From positions 62,001-119,575 of IMG/VR virus record IMGVR_UViG_3300046665_000305: 57,575 nucleotides of DNA; one strand, 5' to 3'. Every line of letters starts with the position of its first letter. The first letter of the stretch is position 1. This DNA comes from an uncultured virus (IMG/VR IMGVR_UViG_3300046665_000305). Lineage: Duplodnaviria > Heunggongvirae > Uroviricota > Caudoviricetes. Positions 14,201-47,586 of the stretch are shown piece by piece. A program made the translations under genes and the position numbers. The notes beneath the pieces are model-generated. The model had not been told where the DNA came from. It did not search any database and was given only the letters and a program-made list of their open reading frames with translations.

Positions 14201-14864
14201 GGGCATTGCCACTTCTTATGCGAAGCGTATCAAGGAAAATGATGACAACATTATCAAGACAATGATATGGAGCGCAAGGGGTCAGGCGTGGCGGAATGAG
14301 CGATTGAGGCGGGCCATGGCAGAATTGAAAGTGGCGACGGATAAAATTCTAAATATTGTAGGGGATGCAGATGCTAAAAATAGGTGAGAAGCACGTAAGA
14401 CGCTATACCGTCTATGTCGAAATCACCGACAGGATGAGCGATATAGGCGTTTCTGGTCCTTATCCGTGTCTCAGAACTGATGACGCCGCAACAGCGTTCG
14501 ATGAATGCGCGCTCCAAAATTGTAGTGCTTATGTCAAGGCATGGGTCAGAGATGAAGTAGAAGGGGTTAATTGGTAATGGAATGCAAATTCGTTATGGGG
14601 CAGAAGGTGGTTTGTGTCAAAGAATTTGAAATGGTTAATGATAGGACACCAGTTGTGAATAAAATTTATACCATAACTTCAATAAGATATGGTGTGGAGC
14701 CTCAAAATAAGAAAGAAATATTTCTAACTTTTGATGAAGTAGGTATTTATATCGGCGGCATTAAATCTGGCTATAGCTATAAATATTTCAAACCGCTTGA
14801 TGAAATTCGCGGCGAGATGTTTTCTAAGCTTTTAAATAATAAGAAGGTACATGAGAATGTATGA
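11249..14864 (+). other. run of ~14 small hypothetical genes (11249-11512, 11493-11741, 11804-12037, 12041-12262, 12275-12511, 12540-12845, 12919-13161, 13194-13394, 13442-13720, 13717-14058, 14133-14387, 14365-14577, 14577-14864)
   Basis: co-directional, tightly packed ORFs, most with SD motifs; no recognisable domains. Confidence 0.7.
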
Positions 14865-18706: not shown

Positions 18707-19619
18707 AATAGCTAATTCTTCTCTTCTCTAATTTTTCGCAATGCATGGCCAGAACTTCTCGGCGCAGCATCTTAGACACAATAGCGAGCCGAAGGTCAAG
18801 GACTTCTGTCACTAGGGCGGGGAACTTTGTGAACCTGATCATCGCGCCGTCAAAGGTGTTACGGCCTTCGAAGTCAGTATCGACCAGTTCGACACCATCA
18901 AAATACGTTTTGTTGAAGTCGCAATTATTGATGACGCAGCGAATAAATTTTGCCTTAGTCATGCTCTTGCCGGAAAAGTCAACATCGTTGAATTCGCACT
19001 CGATAAAAATTTCACCATCAAGCACGTCTTCGAAATAAGACTCTTCATCATAGGTGACATGTTTGTGGACCCACTCAGCCATTCTATCTTGTTTGTTAAA
19101 CATGACGCGGCAACTGGTGGAACAAAATTGGGCCGTGGCGCGGCTAGCGCCAAACTCGTCTCCGCAATAATTGCACATCTTATTATGATTAATTGTTTTA
19201 GCCGCATCTTCGGCAATAGGCAGATTTTTAATTCTTCTATGTTCGGCGGCGCAGTTCGGGCCGCAATAAATTTGCCTACCGTGATGCTTGATGAAGTTGG
19301 GAGTGTCGCATAACGGATTGAGACAGGTAGCGTTGCGCTCCGTGTCGGTCATGCCATACTTTTCGTTATAATTGTGACGATTGGCATGATCGGCGCAGCA
19401 AAATAATTTAGGCCTACCCTGTACCACTTTGGTAGAATAAGTGATAATCTCTTCACAATTTGGAAGGAGACACTTTTTCTGAGACGCGGGACGGAACCTG
19501 TACCGCTTCAATCTCATGTGACATTTAGGGCTACAAGTTTGTTTCTCGGCCTTGGAGGCGAGGAATGTTTTACCGCAATCCGGCGCTTTACATTGTAATT
19601 CGTGTTTAATATTGGTCAC
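18699..19619 (-). CDS. multi-zinc-finger protein with C-terminal pentapeptide repeats
   Basis: four CxxC...CxxxC/H modules followed by ECEFN/DVDFS/GKSMT/KAKFI repeats. Confidence 0.75.
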   Translation of the reverse strand: MTNIKHELQCKAPDCGKTFLASKAEKQTCSPKCHMRLKRYRFRPASQKKCLLPNCEEIITYSTKVVQGRPKLFCCADHANRHNYNEKYGMTDTERNATCLNPLCDTPNFIKHHGRQIYCGPNCAAEHRRIKNLPIAEDAAKTINHNKMCNYCGDEFGASRATAQFCSTSCRVMFNKQDRMAEWVHKHVTYDEESYFEDVLDGEIFIECEFNDVDFSGKSMTKAKFIRCVINNCDFNKTYFDGVELVDTDFEGRNTFDGAMIRFTKFPALVTEVLDLRLAIVSKMLRREVLAMHCEKLEKRRISYYE

Positions 19620-22805: not shown

Positions 22806-23510
22806 ATGGCAGCAAAGAAAATAAAAAGAGAAGTCGATCAGTATCTAAACCTTTATCCGAAGGTTGATAAAAAGCTACTTAAGCAAAAGTTTAAGTATGA
22901 TGAAGATACTGGCCGCGTCTATCGCCTCTTCCGAGATTCATGGAGGGTGACGAAGCGTGTCAACATGCATTACAACAGCAGATACGTTTGCCAATTCCAA
23001 AAAGAACTTATGGAAGTTCAGAATATTGCTTGGCTGTTGATTTATGGTGATTGGCCTAAAGAACCTATAGCTGCCGTAGATGGAAACCTAATGAACACGC
23101 ACAAGGACAATCTAGTCCTCAAGTCTTCATTACAGCCACAACTCGGTAATTATCTGATCAAGCCTTATACCGATGGCGTCTACCAAGTCAAGGTATGGCA
23201 TCACCCCTATTTCTATCGCGGCAGTAGCTTCAAGAAAAAGCTCTCCGCTGAGAAGTGGGCCAGAGACCAACTCAAACAATATAATCTTTATGCCAGCGCT
23301 ACGCAAGCCGCAGCTGAAACAAATAGTAAAGATGATGTTAAAGAGACTCCTGTTCTAGGCGTCTACTATCACAAACCACGTAACTTGTACATGGTTAAAG
23401 TAAGATTAAAAGATAAATTCACTCATTACAGTTATGAGAAGAATATTGAAGACGCCATTGAAGCTCAATTGCGTGGTCAGAAAGAAGTTGACGAGATATG
23501 GCAGGAATAA
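22806..23510 (+). CDS. degenerate HNH-like protein with AP2-like DNA-binding segments
   Basis: FKYDEDTG, AWLLIYGDWP...DGN..N..DNL and GVYYHK...YMVKVR motifs; catalytic His residues absent. Confidence 0.65.
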   Translation: MAAKKIKREVDQYLNLYPKVDKKLLKQKFKYDEDTGRVYRLFRDSWRVTKRVNMHYNSRYVCQFQKELMEVQNIAWLLIYGDWPKEPIAAVDGNLMNTHKDNLVLKSSLQPQLGNYLIKPYTDGVYQVKVWHHPYFYRGSSFKKKLSAEKWARDQLKQYNLYASATQAAAETNSKDDVKETPVLGVYYHKPRNLYMVKVRLKDKFTHYSYEKNIEDAIEAQLRGQKEVDEIWQE

Positions 23511-24291: not shown

Positions 24292-24853
24292 ACTATCCTC
24301 AGAAAGACGAGAGAAGTTTGCTAACTACGTTGCAAACGGTTATACTCAAATAGCGGCATATAAAGAAGCAGGTTTTACTTGCAAGAACACTACAGCTGCC
24401 GCTAATGCATCAAAACTAGCCAGCACCCCCGAAGTCGCAGCAAGAATTGAAGAATTAAAACTTAAAGCAGCTGAAAAAGATATGCTTTCAGTCGCTCCAC
24501 CCCTACCGCTACGTAAAGTAGACCACGAAGAAATTGATCTAGATTGGATCAATCGAGAGTATGTTAAACTATTAAATAAAGCCATCTCATTAGATGACTT
24601 GAAGAATGGAGCAATAATTCTCAAGGACATGGCAGAACTCAATAGAGTCAGCCGCGAACCGCCGCAAAATAATAATAACAATAAGATGCTGCTTTCAAAT
24701 GATAAACTTAACATGGAACGACCGATTAATATACAGGTCATCAATAACGAATCTTCGCAAGATGGAGGAGGCTCTTCAAGACCATTTGCGATTGAAATCC
24801 CCGATCTCGACACACTTGTCATCAGCAATCGTGAGCCTGACGAAGACAGCTAA
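24284..24853 (+). CDS. terS: terminase small subunit
   Basis: REKFA..VANG.TQIAAYKEAGF...ASKL..PEVAARIEEL N-terminal HTH; lies upstream of terL. Confidence 0.85.
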   Translation: MARLSSERREKFANYVANGYTQIAAYKEAGFTCKNTTAAANASKLASTPEVAARIEELKLKAAEKDMLSVAPPLPLRKVDHEEIDLDWINREYVKLLNKAISLDDLKNGAIILKDMAELNRVSREPPQNNNNNKMLLSNDKLNMERPINIQVINNESSQDGGGSSRPFAIEIPDLDTLVISNREPDEDS

Positions 24854-26465
24854 TCCTGAAAATCAATTTGCAGCTGTTCAACAATATTTAGAACACTACG
24901 AGAACGAATACAAGGAAAAGCTTAGAAGTTCAGCATTTGATAGTTATTCATGCTTCGCTGAATATCTCAACATGGATGAGCCACCCGCGCCTCACCACCA
25001 TTTCATGTGTGAGAAACTTCAGCTTGTAGAATGTGGCGACATTCCTCGCCTAGCGTTAAGCGTCCCGGCTGGCGGCGGTAAGAGCGAATACTCTTCCCGT
25101 CGCTTTGCTGTATGGTGCATGGGTCGAAGAAAGACTAAATGGCTTCAGGCCAGCTATGCCGCCGCGTTCGCTACAAACGAACTTGGCAAGAAAACCAAAG
25201 CCTATGTCAATGGTGACGCATTCAAAGACGTGTTCGGAGATGTAGCACTTCAAGCCGACATGCGAGCCGGTGACAGATGGGCGCTGACGAACAAATCTGA
25301 ATATGTCGCTAAAGGCGTTGGCGCTGGTATCATGGGTATCAGAGCGAACATTGGCTGCATCGATGACTTGTATGCAAGCTACTTAGAAGCTCAGAATCCT
25401 AAAGTCAGAGATGACGCCTATTCATGGTTCCTATCTGACTTTCAGACCCGACTCTTGCCCCGCGCTCCTATCGTTCTGGTCAACACTCGATATAATTCTG
25501 ATGACATGATCGGCAGACTTGAGACTGAAGGTAAAAAAGGAAATATTATCCCTTATGAAATCATCAACCTCAAAGCTCTATCTGAGTTAGGTGATGAAGA
25601 CGATCCTATGGGCCGCACAGAGCCCGACATGCCTCTTTGGGACTTTTACCATCAGGATTACCTAAATAAGAGAGCAACGCTCACAGGAGCCATGTGGGGC
25701 TCAATGATGCAGGGCGTACCCGTAGATGCTGAAGGCGTTCTCTTAAAGTCATCTTGGTTCAATCGCTATAAAGGCGATGTAAGGAAAAACCCTGAGATTA
25801 AAATCCGCAGAATTGTTATGTCTGTCGATACGGCGCAGAAAGCGCAAGAGCGTCACGACTACACAGTTTGTACAGTTTGGTTAGAGACTGAATTTGGCTT
25901 GCATTATCTCTTAGATTGCGTTAGAGATAAAGTTGAATTTCCAGAAATGTGCAAACTCATTGATGAGACGGCGCAGCGCTGGAACGTGTCATGCATTCTG
26001 ATCGAAGATAAAGGCTCTGGCACTCAGTATATCCAAACACGCCAAGGCAAAACATCAGTTCCGATCATTGCTATCAGCACAAATAATAATTCTAAAGAAT
26101 TTAGATTTGATGCCGTAGCCCCTACCATCGAAGCCGGTTTGGTTTACCTACCGGAATCCGCCAATTGGCTAGCCGAATACGAGCGCGAGCTAATGGCATT
26201 CCCGTATGGCAAGAATGACGATATGGTCGATAGCACCAGCCAATATTTAGAATGGGCCAGAGGAAGACAGAGAAAATTAGGAACTAAAAAACTTCACGGT
26301 TCCGGCTCTACACCCTCTAGCGATGCTAAAAGAACTATGGTAGAGAAAGCAATCCAAGAAGAAATGGAACGCAAACGTATAGAAAGGGAAAAACGTGAGC
26401 AAGCCGCAGCAGCAGCAGAAAGCCCCGCCTCGACGCAACCCGATGGCGAGAGAATTGGAACTTAA
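24762..26465 (+). CDS. terL: terminase large subunit
   Basis: Walker A PAGGGKS, Walker B CIDD, TRY motif, nuclease SVDTA...DYT...IEDK...DDMVDS; start could be 24699. Confidence 0.95.
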   Translation: MEEALQDHLRLKSPISTHLSSAIVSLTKTANPENQFAAVQQYLEHYENEYKEKLRSSAFDSYSCFAEYLNMDEPPAPHHHFMCEKLQLVECGDIPRLALSVPAGGGKSEYSSRRFAVWCMGRRKTKWLQASYAAAFATNELGKKTKAYVNGDAFKDVFGDVALQADMRAGDRWALTNKSEYVAKGVGAGIMGIRANIGCIDDLYASYLEAQNPKVRDDAYSWFLSDFQTRLLPRAPIVLVNTRYNSDDMIGRLETEGKKGNIIPYEIINLKALSELGDEDDPMGRTEPDMPLWDFYHQDYLNKRATLTGAMWGSMMQGVPVDAEGVLLKSSWFNRYKGDVRKNPEIKIRRIVMSVDTAQKAQERHDYTVCTVWLETEFGLHYLLDCVRDKVEFPEMCKLIDETAQRWNVSCILIEDKGSGTQYIQTRQGKTSVPIIAISTNNNSKEFRFDAVAPTIEAGLVYLPESANWLAEYERELMAFPYGKNDDMVDSTSQYLEWARGRQRKLGTKKLHGSGSTPSSDAKRTMVEKAIQEEMERKRIEREKREQAAAAAESPASTQPDGERIGT

Positions 26466-27418: not shown

Positions 27419-29410
27419 TTAAAAGTTGATGTTGTAAAGTTTCTGGCCCGTTGCGGTCTTGACCAAAACAGGTAGTTCGGTACGCTTCGTGGAACTGAAA
27501 CCAATTCCGCTCAGCTGATCATCGGTAGGCTCGCACTTAGTCTTTGATCCAAGCACTTCGAAAACCTTCCGATGCTGTTCAAGTCCCGACTTGAGGAATT
27601 CGTTATAAATACCACGAGTCGGTTCTGGATTCAAGCAGTCCTTCAGAATAAAGAACCAATGCTTGTTACCTGTTGCATTATCATCCCAATAGTTAGGGCT
27701 GAGAATGATTGTGTTAACAGGAACGAAAGTTTCAGTCTTGATGCCCCATTTATCCTGCGGCATCATACCACCACTAACACCTTCGCCGGTAACGATAGCA
27801 GCAACAATACCATTCTTGACCGTGATCTTCAGCGCGCCAATCGTTCCAGCAACAGCCTTCGGATAGCTGAAATTATGAACCGAACCATTGTTTTCCACTT
27901 CAAGTTCGAAACCATAATCAATGTTTTCACGTCTGGTATATTGATTGACCTTGACAATATAGACACCATCTACAAGATTAGATTTGGTATAGCTGATGTT
28001 CTCTACCGGCTCACGTGAGCGCGCTCCAAAAGCATTCATATCAACATCAAGCTTACCTCTAGGATTGCCGAAGTAGATATGAGTCTTATCTGGTTCAATA
28101 ACATGGATATCCAAGTCATCATAGTTATGCCAAGCCAAGCTGATACGCAGTGCAGCGTTAGTTACGTTACCGCCAGCCTTAGCCACCTTTGCCTTGATAT
28201 CAGAGTCAGCAACTTCTCCGTCATAGCTCCAACCGAAGTTGTTATTCCACTTGAAAAGTTGCTCAACATCATCGTGAACCGGAGCGGTAAGGCTCATGAA
28301 ATTACCGGCAAAAGCATTCTTAACCAGAACGTCAATCGACTTAGCGCGCGGCACCACGTCAGCCATAAATGCCTCGATACCGATGTTTTCCGCCTTATCA
28401 ACATTAGGCTTCTTTGTCACAGCAGCTTCCATGAGTAGTGACTCAATGCCACCCTTCATCTTACCTACAACTGAGTTATCTACCCAAAGTACATTGTTGA
28501 CAGTAACGTCACCGATCCGAGCAAAACGCCGCTCCAATGCCGTTTCAAGGTTCAACTTCTCGATTGTCTTCATCGCGTCTTTAATCATGTTAGGCGTGAT
28601 GAGAGTCTTTGAACGCTTGTAATTGTCGCCAGCCATCTTTGTCTCGAAAGAGCCAACTGCCTTTTCCAAATCCTTGCCTTCGGTCAAGTCCTGCACCAGC
28701 GTACCAATTACCGTGTTACGAAAACCAGTAACAAAGCTATCGATATTGGCCCAAATGAAGATGTTACGTGCTTCATCTGAATTGAGCTTGTTGTACTCAC
28801 GCTGAACCGTGGCGAATGCATCCACAGCCGCCTTGTGTTCCGTGCCTCGATACAGAAGATCGTCTTTGATCAAATCCTGCACCGTGACAACTGCACCGCT
28901 ATCAAGCTCTTCCAGCGCCCGACGGAAGACCTGAGCCGCCGTAGCCTTCTTACCCTTAAACTCAGCCACTTCGGCGCAAATGTGCTTTGTAGCAATCTTC
29001 GTGTTGAAGTGATTCCAATTGATATTGGATTCAAAATCACGCGTCATCTCGGCACCAAAAGAATTCTCCTTGGTACGGAAGACGTTAGAGATTCCAAGGC
29101 CCTTAACCTTGTCGGAAAGAGCTTCGCAAACCACATTGAACGGATGACCCACATCAGCAACATCCCAAACTGAGACAAGCTGATTGTCAACGATAGCAAC
29201 AACGTTAGCAATGTTGCGCATGAAATTCTTGCAGCACGAGCAATCATACTCGCGGCGCTGACGAAACACTTCGTTTGTGCCAGCCGGAAACGAATCGAGA
29301 TAGAAATCCCAAAGTTCGTCACCTGAAATATTCACGGTGTAAAGCTCTTGCTTCGAAAGCGTGTCGAAATTGGCACGAATAGCCTTTGCGAATGGTCTAA
29401 AATCTGTCAT
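27419..29410 (-). CDS. large conserved phage protein with YfaP/DUF2135-like domain
   Basis: YDCSCCK N-terminus; LRISLAW..DDLDIHV.EP...LDVDMN...EPVENI. Confidence 0.8.
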   Translation of the reverse strand: MTDFRPFAKAIRANFDTLSKQELYTVNISGDELWDFYLDSFPAGTNEVFRQRREYDCSCCKNFMRNIANVVAIVDNQLVSVWDVADVGHPFNVVCEALSDKVKGLGISNVFRTKENSFGAEMTRDFESNINWNHFNTKIATKHICAEVAEFKGKKATAAQVFRRALEELDSGAVVTVQDLIKDDLLYRGTEHKAAVDAFATVQREYNKLNSDEARNIFIWANIDSFVTGFRNTVIGTLVQDLTEGKDLEKAVGSFETKMAGDNYKRSKTLITPNMIKDAMKTIEKLNLETALERRFARIGDVTVNNVLWVDNSVVGKMKGGIESLLMEAAVTKKPNVDKAENIGIEAFMADVVPRAKSIDVLVKNAFAGNFMSLTAPVHDDVEQLFKWNNNFGWSYDGEVADSDIKAKVAKAGGNVTNAALRISLAWHNYDDLDIHVIEPDKTHIYFGNPRGKLDVDMNAFGARSREPVENISYTKSNLVDGVYIVKVNQYTRRENIDYGFELEVENNGSVHNFSYPKAVAGTIGALKITVKNGIVAAIVTGEGVSGGMMPQDKWGIKTETFVPVNTIILSPNYWDDNATGNKHWFFILKDCLNPEPTRGIYNEFLKSGLEQHRKVFEVLGSKTKCEPTDDQLSGIGFSSTKRTELPVLVKTATGQKLYNINF

Positions 29411-34029: not shown

Positions 34030-34455
34030 GACAAAACCTCCTTACAATTATTTCCTGCAATCTAAGTCATTATAATATACGTGTCAATCACTAAATTTTT
34101 GCACTCAGTGCAAACTTTCACCAATTACAAAGATACATTTAATGTGATTTTACCTGCGCGATTTTAAATTTTTTAAAAGTTAAGCTTTAATTTTTATAAA
34201 CAAAATCGCATTTTTTCCTCCGATTCTTAGGCTATCTTTTAAAAATCCCTAATTTTTGAAGGTTTGAAGCGCTCGATCCATAGCCAACCAGCTATATGTT
34301 CCATTATTTGGAATTTTTTAAAAATTAAACTTCAATTTAAATCAAAAAATAATTGAAAATTGGCGCAACGAGGGCTTGACAAGGCTTTTACATTTTCTTA
34401 CATTCAAATTATAAAGTTTAAACAATTGATTTCTTACTCGAAAAGGAGAATTTGT

Positions 34456-36149: not shown

Positions 36150-36362
36150 ATGTATTCAGTGAGGGACAGCGATAATAATACTATCATCAAAACGGCAGAC
36201 CTTGATCTGGCTGAGCTTGTCGTGCTGGCATGCTCGCTCGCTAGGGGTAGGTTCCATAAGGTCATGGACGAGGCAGGGACCCATGAAAAATTTCGTCAGG
36301 GTCAGGGACCCTCAGAAAATTTGGAAAGGGCCTACTTGTCACACAGAAAAATCACGATTTAG
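36150..36362 (+). CDS. hypothetical protein
   Basis: GGGGAG RBS. Confidence 0.5.
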   Translation: MYSVRDSDNNTIIKTADLDLAELVVLACSLARGRFHKVMDEAGTHEKFRQGQGPSENLERAYLSHRKITI

Positions 36363-36375
36363 GATTTGCTAATCT

Positions 36376-36606
36376 ATGGGAGAACAAAAGATGATTTACA
36401 ACAAATATGTCGCGTTTGGCATTACTGGTGGCGCAATCAGAGTAACTAAGCCGTACCGGGAGATCAAACAGGCAACACGAGACTTCTTCAAGGAGTATCC
36501 CGGCGCTGAACACTGCACCGTGCGTCGTGTCGCGGTTCGGCTCAGTGGCGAGACGGTAAACGATCCTGAATTCGAAGCGAGACGCGTTTCGAAAATTAAC
36601 GCTTGA
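36376..36606 (+). CDS. hypothetical protein
   Basis: ORF with RBS (start may be 36391). Confidence 0.55.
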   Translation: MGEQKMIYNKYVAFGITGGAIRVTKPYREIKQATRDFFKEYPGAEHCTVRRVAVRLSGETVNDPEFEARRVSKINA

Positions 36607-36631
36607 CAGAATCATTTAGGTCAAGTACACA

Positions 36632-36998
36632 AGTGGCATGATTGGAACGAACCTCTAACTAATGTTTGCAGCATTAGTGATTGTAACGAGTCATAGAGGC
36701 ATCGTATGAGATGATGATGGTTCAATTTCTAGGAAGCCGTGAACTGCAACAAGCGGCTTGACGGTGGCGAACCTAACAGACTTTCAATCATAATTGGTGC
36801 GCAGGTTAAAGCCCTGCTATGTTGGATTTGTAACCTCTTTCTCTTCATACACCTAGAACGTGGCATCATTTTTAATCTTTATCGCAGAAACAGCATTTGG
36901 TTTCAACCTCTTTACCAAATGCTGCTAAGAACCGGCTCATCTCTCCCATGACGCGATCCTCCTTATCGCATCACGCGGATCGAGAGAGCCGGTTTTTT
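36632..36998 (+). ncRNA. candidate phage sRNA with anti-SD hairpin loops
   Basis: TTGACA at 36603, successive stem-loops, GCGAT-CCTCCTT-ATCGC, closing CCGGCTC/GAGCCGG stem plus T-run. Confidence 0.55.
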
Positions 36999-37150
36999 CA
37001 TTCATCACAGACTCGTAATTTTTTTATCACGAGAGTCCATTTTTCCCTCATCACAATGTCCCATTTTTTCTGGCGCGAACCGGCGATTTTTGGCACGCCA
37101 GCGTTTCAATTTTATTTAAAATTATTTCAAAAATTTCTATGAATCGAGGG

Positions 37151-37291
37151 GAACAAAACCAGAACATTTGGCACGTTCTTGGTTTGTTCACGATTTGTTT
37201 CACCGTTCCCTTTTTGTTACAGTTTTGTTCCCTAAATGTTATATCTTTGTTCCCGTTTTGTTTCAGTTCATGGTTCGTTCCCTCTATGTTC
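37151..37291. promoter_or_regulatory. tandem array of alphaproteobacterial LexA (SOS) box-like sites
   Basis: GAAC/GTTC-type half-sites at exact 11-bp spacing: 37151,37162; 37175,37186,37197; 37205-37260 (six); 37266,37277,37288. Confidence 0.8.
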
Positions 37292-37502
37292 CGTTCTTTG
37301 AAGCGGGCAGGTTCGCCGTTCCCATCCTCGGCCCCGCCCTTCGGGCTTTTGCGGCGTCTTTGAATTGTTTTTAGAATATGATGATTCTGACATGTAGTCA
37401 ATAGAAAAATAGCACGAAATAAAATTATTTTTATAAAGATTTCCGCTTGACTCCGTTTCCTTACATGTCATTATGTATGCATCAACAAGAGGAGCAAACG
37501 GC

Positions 37503-41939: not shown

Positions 41940-41948
41940 CAATCCGTG

Positions 41949-41999
41949 GGATGGGAACGGCGAACCTGCAATATTTTTAAAACGGAACATATGTGGAAC
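41949..41999 (+). repeat. inverted copy of the 37277-37327 module (21-bp element plus LexA-like box)
   Basis: GGATGGGAACGGCGAACCTGC is the exact reverse complement of 37307-37327; GAAC-N7-GAAC at 41985-41999. Confidence 0.85.
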
Positions 42000-45785: not shown

Positions 45786-46870
45786 TGCATGGAAAAGCTA
45801 ATCCTTGTTCTCATCCTCAATTCACCCGATCAAACCGCGACTCTGTCGCGGTTTGACATTGGCCCGCAAGACTCCTGCTTTGCCATGGCTGAGAAGGTCA
45901 ACAATAGCCCCTCCAATAGAATCGTCTATTCAGATGAACTAGACGACGTTAAGGAGCGTTTCGCGTTCTGTGAATACGCTAACGGGCAAAGAATCGCCAT
46001 TCCCGCAACGAAACCGAAAAGGAGCTAGAATCGGCTTGTTCGCACTATATGGATTCATTGGTTCATGTCTTATTCTTTACGTGATTTGGCCGCTATAGCA
46101 GCCCTAGGAACGGCTTAACCGGCTTAACCGGTATTGCCCTAGCCAAAACACTGAATCGCGTTCTGTGAAGCTCTAAAAGGCTTTGCAGGACGCTCGATTA
46201 TTTTTGAGATTTTTAAAGATTCCGCTTGCCAAGATGTAAGGAAATGTTATTGTGTAGATATCGAAACAAGAGGAAATGCAAATGTCTGAATTCACGAAAT
46301 ACATCAATGAAGCTCGCGCAAAAGGCGATTTAGCTACGGCGCGCCGGATCAAAATGGAACGTGCTATTTGTAGCGCTCTTGTCAAAGCTGCGCTGGAACG
46401 CGGCCTAGTTTGCAGCGTTTACGATGGCGGCGCATGGCCGGTCAAAAAATCGGCCAAATATTCCGAAATCATGAACGCTCTTTTCACAACCGATTCCGAT
46501 GTGTTGCAACTCCGCAATGCGGAAGGCGTTTCTATGGGCCGCTTTGACCTGATCTACGGTAACGATGGCTATGACGTGGTTGCTGATTATACCGTGACTG
46601 AGACCACGGAATCGCTCTGGCAAGAGGTTATAAACCCCCTTTCTGAGAAGCTAGAACGGCAGGGTTAGCAGCCCCGCTAGGCCATGCTCCATATGGGCCA
46701 TGGCCTAGCCTACCTAGTGCATGGTATGGCATGCATATATGCATATATGATATGCACTATGTATCATATATGAATATATAATAGATTGAATAGATGTAAG
46801 ATAATGTATTGCGTTATCTTACATTGTTCTATATAGTCTATTCATACACAACACATAAGGAGTAAGGCGC

Positions 46871-47298: not shown

Positions 47299-47586
47299 AG
47301 TCGATTGTTGTTGACTCTAATCTATTATTGATTTAAAATCGAGAGGGACCCAAGGCGGGTATACCCCTACCCCCTCGAATCCGGCCCAACAGGCGTCAAA
47401 AATATACAACCCAACTTGTACCCCCCCCCCGGCCCAAGGATACCCTTACCCTCAAAAAAATTTTGCACTACAAGTTAGTGTTCAAAAATTTCAACACCTT
47501 ACCATTTTAATTTTTGGATCAAAATTTAAATCTTGACATTTCGTTAATTATATGAGATGATAAATGAAATAAATGGGAACAGAAAC

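Follow-up and report, generated by a model that had tools for sequence, protein, structure and literature searches.

An intergenic array of 14 half-sites, whose boxes look like alphaproteobacterial LexA operators, heads the early block of an uncultured phage that probably infects Rhizobiales. The array is real, conserved, and of LexA type; clusters of host-regulator sites in CbK-like terminal repeats and the use of LexA by phages were already known. We consider it likely that host LexA binds the array, and we tentatively favor the reading that it is an operator array gating early expression on the SOS state of the host. The window that we analyzed is a stretch of 57,575 nucleotides, positions 62,001 to 119,575 of a linear IMG/VR-type record (the contig) with an estimated completeness of 65%. 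Unless noted, coordinates are those of the window, and the main features are collected in Table 1.

The half-sites fall into four runs of two, three, six, and three between 37151 and 37291, by direct count, with 11-bp spacing inside each run and run offsets of 8 and 6 bp. Recounting returned the half-site number, runs, and phasing of the original prediction, made from the sequence alone, as well as its four perfect boxes (37151, 37175, 37266, and 37277). Its roughly six one-mismatch boxes correspond to the six that are in register; a cross-run box at 37255 brings the total to seven. Two other parts of the prediction needed revision. Neighboring boxes have half-sites in common, so that there would be room for about six LexA dimers at once, not for ten separate sites, and the array proper stops at 37291 instead of 37327, the remainder (37292 to 37328) being a separate conserved GC-rich element. 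The array is the densest 180-bp stretch of the 119,575-base contig, with 11 boxes compared to a maximum of two elsewhere, and is the only cluster of its kind there. When the region was shuffled with half-sites kept as tokens, none of 20,000 trials reached 11 boxes (mean 2.3); this result, and the retention of half-sites while spacers vary, bear out the earlier claim that the array is no simple tandem duplication. TRF finds a weak 22-bp repeat with 66% matches in the region. Two frames of the plus strand are open across the array, and a coding role is disfavored by the 11-bp period and by a 1-bp gap relative to both relatives.

Table 1. Features in and around the LexA-type array (window coordinates)
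Feature	Position	Strand	Remarks
GGGACCC pair	36276..36311	+	counterpart of GGGACCC cluster near left end of phiCbK repeat
Structured RNA-like region with terminal terminator-like hairpin	36780..37000	+	neighbor of array, outside it
T-tract/ATCAC repeats, 21-26 bp spacing	36993..37092	+	counterpart of ~22-bp T-tract repeats in phiCbK, Lacusarx, RpAliso
AT-rich conserved stretch	37101..37148	.	86-90% identity in relatives
Inverted perfect LexA-type box, half-sites GAAC 37151, 37162	37151..37165	-	top score of contig, 22.1 bits
Run A: GTTC 37175, GTTC 37186, GTTT 37197	37175..37200	+	11-bp spacing; third is GTTC in both related lineages
Run B: GTTC 37205, GTTA 37216, GTTC 37227, GTTA 37238, GTTC 37249, GTTT 37260	37205..37263	+	both GTTA invariant in three lineages
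Candidate sigma-70 promoter in run B: -35 GTTACA, 18 bp, extended -10 TG-T-TATATC	37216..37245	+	in three lineages; weak consensus match, putative
Run C: GTTC 37266, 37277, 37288 (three perfect half-sites)	37266..37291	+	
Conserved GC-rich element	37301..37328	+	21-mer found again at 41948 beside single box, inverted with 1 mismatch
Leftward consensus promoter TTGACT-17-TATTCT, directed into array	37373..37401	-	kept in three lineages; consensus match only
Rightward early promoter ahead of phrog_37117 gene (ORF to 37721)	37447..37474	+	consensus match
Inverted single-box cassette copy, box 41985 (16.8 bits)	41948..41999	-	precedes early promoter 42031; relative G002 has it too
GAGGGACCCAAGG motif (47343) and poly-C	47340..47430	+	same motif ~40 bp inside right end of phiCbK repeat; putative repeat end

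The resemblance to LexA operators was assessed with a motif from probable hosts. A de novo search of 60 Rhizobiaceae upstream regions (30 of recA and 30 of lexA) gave T-GT(T/A)C-N4-TTT-GTTC, and the scoring matrix was built from the 54 distinct sites left after removal of two poor sites and duplicates, and represents these two genes only. Scanning the genome and its relatives with a LexA matrix, a check suggested along with the original prediction, placed the top four sites of the contig, and eight of its 14 best, in the array. Seven of the 11 array boxes score at least 13.1 bits, the lowest leave-one-out score of the host sites, and three score below 8 bits, compared to a host median of 22.0. 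The related lineages outscore this array, with seven and nine boxes of at least 13 bits and six perfect boxes each. The spacers match the host grammar in their base order (0 of 20,000 within-spacer shuffles), with a spacer score of +2.3, compared to -7.4 for the 34 other GTTH boxes of the contig and -2.8 for repeats at 76 loci classed as rep-gene iterons (see below). The commonest phage spacers, ACGT and ACGG, are GC-richer than host spacers. lexA is present in 39 of 41 Rhizobiaceae genomes. Triple tandem half-sites also occur in host chromosomes, among 24 loci hand-picked from 120 genome loci; they lie near dnaE and upstream of genes that, judging from the N-termini, we take to encode RecA, ParE, a radical-SAM protein, and ribonucleotide reductase. 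The likeness to LexA operators in the original prediction is thus upheld by a host-promoter motif that fits both half-sites and spacers, and this fit makes binding by host LexA likely.

The array was found in three of the 61 loci retrieved with a gene for a 663-aa protein: L001 and L003, which represent one lineage, and L012. The remaining loci were distant (at most 61% identity) or ended short of the array position. This protein (27419-29410) belongs to phrog_1735, is common to Ackermannviridae, Schitoviridae, and others, and has no Pfam match. The array-bearing relatives are 79-83% identical to the window across the segment 37158-37424, and 54 of 56 half-site bases are invariant across the three lineages compared to 56 of 85 other bases (Fisher p 7e-6). 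Two half-sites that read GTTT here are GTTC in both relatives, and the two GTTA half-sites are unchanged in all. The 11-bp phasing, to whose conservation in related phages the original prediction had tied its reading, is kept in both related lineages. In a relative that is about 99% identical on both flanks, the segment 37158-37424 is exchanged for 246 letters not seen before, in contigs from four of four rhizosphere runs; one of these runs additionally contains an array-bearing allele. The 246-base segment may be a diverged array or a swapped cassette, the former because the known array relatives, at 79-83% identity, fall under the 85% limit of the comparison. A search for this allele returned only the known relatives and chance matches.

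Similarity of terL (24699-26465) places the phage in the phiCbK/Lacusarx-like terL lineage, with best matches to Lacusarx (43%), the DSS3P8 group (40%), and the CbK group (35%). Rhizobium phages account for 42 of the 72 records matching the tailspike (best 45%), and Rhizobium or Sinorhizobium phages for 27 of 40 protease matches. The original prediction had assumed an alphaproteobacterial host; these matches and the alphaproteobacterial phages nearest in terL suggest, from sequence, that the host is probably a member of the Rhizobiales. Megablast returned no close cultured relative, and blastn of the 34-40 kb region gave short matches only. Neither a LexA DNA-binding domain nor an S24 domain turned up in the contig; since this is only about 65% complete, the phage could still encode a binder of its own. 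A T5-like two-step injection, with the 663-aa and a 135-aa gene as A1 and A2, was ruled out by direct comparison, and neither BLASTP nor tblastn detected similarity to T5 A1 or A2 in the roughly 65% complete contig. Other genes in the contig include a stand-alone tyrosine recombinase (gene set G000 L615:12487-13068, L615:14457-14777, L617:13108-15045, and L617:1029-1514). The same set holds a T7 gp5.9-like RecBCD-inhibitor domain, a ClpB-like AAA protein, an RNA polymerase alpha-CTD-like protein, three RNA ligases, and an NAD salvage module.

The position of the array is informative. The genome descriptions give the terminal repeat of phiCbK as 10,287 bp, beginning in terL (PMC3556154), and that of Lacusarx as about 10.5 kb (PMC5648845). 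Downstream of terL, both phages have, in this order, clustered GGGACCC words, T-tract repeats of ~22 bp, clustered CtrA-type half-sites, and an early promoter. The window has GGGACCC at 36276 and 36305, T-tract repeats at 36993-37092, the LexA-type array, and an early promoter, in that order. RpAliso has the GGGACCC and T-tract landmarks, and its array slot contains neither CtrA nor LexA words. The T-tract module is found at L179:7190-7520 in phiCbK, L178:8520-8950 in Lacusarx, and L613:9450-9590 in RpAliso. From these landmarks and the right-end motif shared with phiCbK, we infer a long terminal repeat that ends near 47.4 kb and includes the array, which would then be close to the left end, with about 10.2 kb separating it from the predicted right end; GGGACCC appears to be the terminus motif of the lineage. 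Rhizosphere contigs inside 35-46 kb have a depth about 1.4-2.7x that near 32 kb and 48 kb; this excess matches a terminal repeat, and we excluded it as support since contig depth is no copy number. Palindromic CATGGCCTAG / ATGCATAT repeats lie at 46690-46790, near the predicted right end. No CtrA cluster was found in 36.8-41.2 kb, and beyond position 23394 the window lacks full CtrA boxes altogether. Judged by this arrangement, the LexA-type array takes the place that CtrA-type clusters have in phiCbK and Lacusarx, the slot for host-regulator sites. According to Mascolo et al. 2022 (PMC9437464), CtrA binds single sites elsewhere in phiCbK-like repeats and activates promoters there, and lytic deferment was proposed; the CtrA probes described there cover single sites at gp005 and gp018, not a cluster equivalent to the LexA-type array.

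The array heads the early block, as its predicted placement in an early region had implied. It was also said to lie more than 150 bp from the next promoter. This holds for the rightward promoter at 37447, which is 156 bp from the last box, and fails for the other strand, where a leftward consensus promoter (37401-37373) points into the array, and for the array itself, which contains a candidate promoter in which the -35 and the extended -10 fall on the two GTTA half-sites of run B. Consensus promoters number 15 in 34-38 kb compared to 8.0 expected. Relatives carry extra copies of the single-box cassette 0.6 and 1.1 kb downstream. The early promoters at 34376, 37447, and 42031, and those of relatives, have a common word, TTCCTTACAT, in or beside the spacer, possibly a site for a phage regulator. 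Elsewhere in the contig, a single LexA-type box (14.5 bits; G000 19489, L615) lies about 70 bp upstream of the start of a 703-aa gene at 19421. On the left of the array, 36602-37000 (+) probably encodes a stand-alone structured RNA of about 360 nt (fold z -6.4), with double changes at five of 59 predicted pairs among three sequences and anti-Shine-Dalgarno-like words (CCTCCTT/ACCTCTT) in its loops. An Rfam search over 29-48 kb returned three tRNAs only and no match for this candidate RNA.

Similar arrays occur in other uncultured phages. A strict triple pattern matched at least 123 IMG/VR stretches compared to 91 for its reversed control, which is no enrichment by raw count alone. Enrichment shows only when multi-box loci are compared: at least four perfect boxes with at least three different spacers occur in 44 of 108 distinct loci among the matches listed for the LexA pattern, compared to three of 73 for the reversed pattern; likewise among the matches listed, 16 and two loci, respectively, carry at least two inverted boxes. 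Of 39 array loci picked by hand, several of them kin, 18 have a terminase gene as one of their two closest ORFs, with 106 of the 133 ORFs scanned, and the array spacer grammar is found beside at least five TerS and two TerL families. Dense LexA-type arrays lie just upstream of terS/terL in L247, L236, L204, L226, L199, L200, L228, L218, L190, L195, L212, L225, and L249, which are unrelated small phages in which poly-C or poly-G runs often flank the array. The terL genes of unrelated array phages match those of Pelagibacter phages (38%) and of Vibrio/Pelagibacter phages (56-58%). For a neighboring early gene, phages of Roseobacter, Pelagibacter, and Caulobacter make up 10 of 16 cultured matches. 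LexA-type arrays are absent from the 18 cultured phages checked, blastn searches of cultured phages with the array and with a consensus-like array as queries gave short, chance-level matches only, and we found no description of such arrays in a search of the open-access literature. The loci of a looser pattern (L062-L177), mostly 11-bp TGTTC repeats in a common coding-like context, are presumably iterons in phage replication-initiator genes; 76 of these 116 loci were classed as such by flanking sequence. No initiator family was found near the array among the ORFs scanned.

We tentatively interpret the array as a gate on early gene expression. Upon phage entry, host LexA would load up to about six dimer sites, plus the single boxes at other early promoters. 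Bound LexA would block the transcript of the leftward promoter and the embedded candidate promoter, and would thereby hold back or tune the early block; the effect on the rightward promoter, 156 bp away, could be repression or activation. In the host, DNA damage leads to RecA-dependent cleavage of LexA. Release of the block could follow such cleavage, or could come about when replicating phage DNA outnumbers free LexA, and the array would correspond to the CtrA-site clusters of phiCbK and Lacusarx but would read the SOS state. The conserved promoters at and in the array and the single-box cassettes ahead of other early promoters support this interpretation, as do the host-motif fit, half-site conservation, the CtrA-slot position, the Rhizobiales-like genes, and the lack of a detected phage LexA. 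Of the two functions first proposed, a platform sensing host DNA damage fits best, and a sponge fares less well with about six dimers per copy and promoters at the array; titration could be a late side effect or the release mechanism itself. Several points argue against a gate. A distance of 156 bp is too great for simple steric repression of the rightward promoter. The promoters are consensus matches only, the embedded one weak; three of 11 boxes score below 8 bits, with a matrix from two genes. The 18 cultured phages checked provide no example of an array phage with a known host. Fourteen half-sites also exceed the needs of repression, since about 97% of Caulobacter SOS promoters carry a single box, GTTCN7GTTC (PMC12700426).

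Alternatively, the LexA-bound array may license or anchor a cis element, such as an origin or a site for repeat duplication, packaging, or DNA entry, with the bent T-tracts and the AT-rich stretch doing the work. We regard this as unlikely, though several observations favor it. Iteron-like repeats, the AT-rich stretch, and convergent promoters adjoin the array; four distant phages all retain the T-tract repeats, regardless of what the slot contains; and terminase genes are frequent neighbors of the hand-picked array loci, some of them kin. In addition, T5-like phages have DnaA boxes at the injection stop (10.1101/866236). However, no T5 A1/A2 homologue was found in the contig, and the array is not at the position of the T5 injection stop signal. 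DnaA boxes are absent near the inner repeat end, the single consensus DnaA box of the window being at 14654, and GC skew tracks gene direction and singles out no origin. The promoter-side single-box cassettes suit transcription better.

Quite unlikely, in our view, is a pure sponge, which would titrate LexA as phage genomes increase in number and free the host's SOS recombination and repair functions from repression. The number of sites, high-scoring, phased, and conserved, is far above the need of one promoter. The array would occur twice per genome if it is in a terminal repeat, and with an assumed 100 genomes, six dimers in each of two copies would amount to about 1,200 dimer sites. A single entering genome, however, would offer only 6-12 dimer sites, and autoregulation of lexA, which has boxes upstream, would buffer titration. 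A sink could do without a set position, unvarying GTTA half-sites, and run offsets, yet all three are conserved. Promoters flank the array and may lie in it, and single boxes occur at other early promoters. The array also occupies the slot of the relatives' CtrA sites, some of which, elsewhere in the repeats, control transcription (PMC9437464).

It is very unlikely that the boxes are sites for a phage protein (a small terminase, replication initiator, or repressor) that resemble LexA operators by convergence. The abundance of 11-bp TGTTC iterons in phage DNA, the frequent position of arrays beside terS/terL, and the incompleteness of the contig would allow it, but rep-gene iterons are without the host spacer grammar, one grammar recurs beside different terminase families, the terminus motif of the lineage appears to be GGGACCC, and loci with multiple boxes and mixed spacers are far more frequent than for the reversed pattern among the matches listed. 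Chance or selectively neutral tandem duplication, to which T-rich intergenic DNA and the weak TRF repeat might point, is hardly credible given the token shuffles and the conservation of half-sites beside variable spacers.

If the array is an SOS gate, the wiring of CbK-like terminal repeats to a host master regulator would extend from CtrA to LexA, suggesting that one regulator module can be exchanged for another. More speculatively, many unrelated uncultured alphaproteobacterial phages might use dense LexA arrays, placed in a swappable slot at the end of the genome or the border of the early region, to hold infection idle until SOS without a phage repressor, a generalization that we think unlikely to hold. 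Such SOS-keyed deferment might explain why arrays are absent from the 18 cultured phages, and if the widespread arrays work alike, a class of phages that seem lytic would have a hidden trigger in DNA damage. Without the phage, the 140-bp element could be assayed in Agrobacterium, Rhizobium, or Caulobacter for binding, for effects on a reporter, and for its capacity to titrate.

The array resembles several known systems in part. Rep-gene iterons likewise have TGTTC at an 11-bp period, but they are coding, point in one direction, and do not follow the spacer grammar of host LexA sites. The T5 injection stop signal is also a complex non-coding repeat region with host-protein boxes in a long terminal repeat (here a predicted one); the array differs in having no A1/A2 homologue, in lying near the predicted left end, and in the host protein concerned. 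The temperate phages GIL01, 186, and CTXphi have LexA-controlled switches, in which, in the lysogen, one box or a few cover the promoter of an antirepressor or a lytic promoter. These switches and the array have in common LexA-type operators, predicted in our case, to read DNA damage, whereas here a dense array lies in a CbK-like repeat and no repressor was found. Alphaproteobacterial SOS boxes are alike in half-sites, 11-bp spacing, and a spacer ending in TTT, and triple half-sites occur in host promoters too, but those promoters mostly have one box, compared to 14 half-sites in four runs with one inverted box in the phage. The CtrA clusters of phiCbK-like phages share the terL lineage, the repeat position, and the neighbors of the array, with host-regulator sites upstream of uncharacterized early genes. 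Here the sites are instead of LexA type, denser, and helically phased, and they would read DNA damage, not cell-cycle stage.
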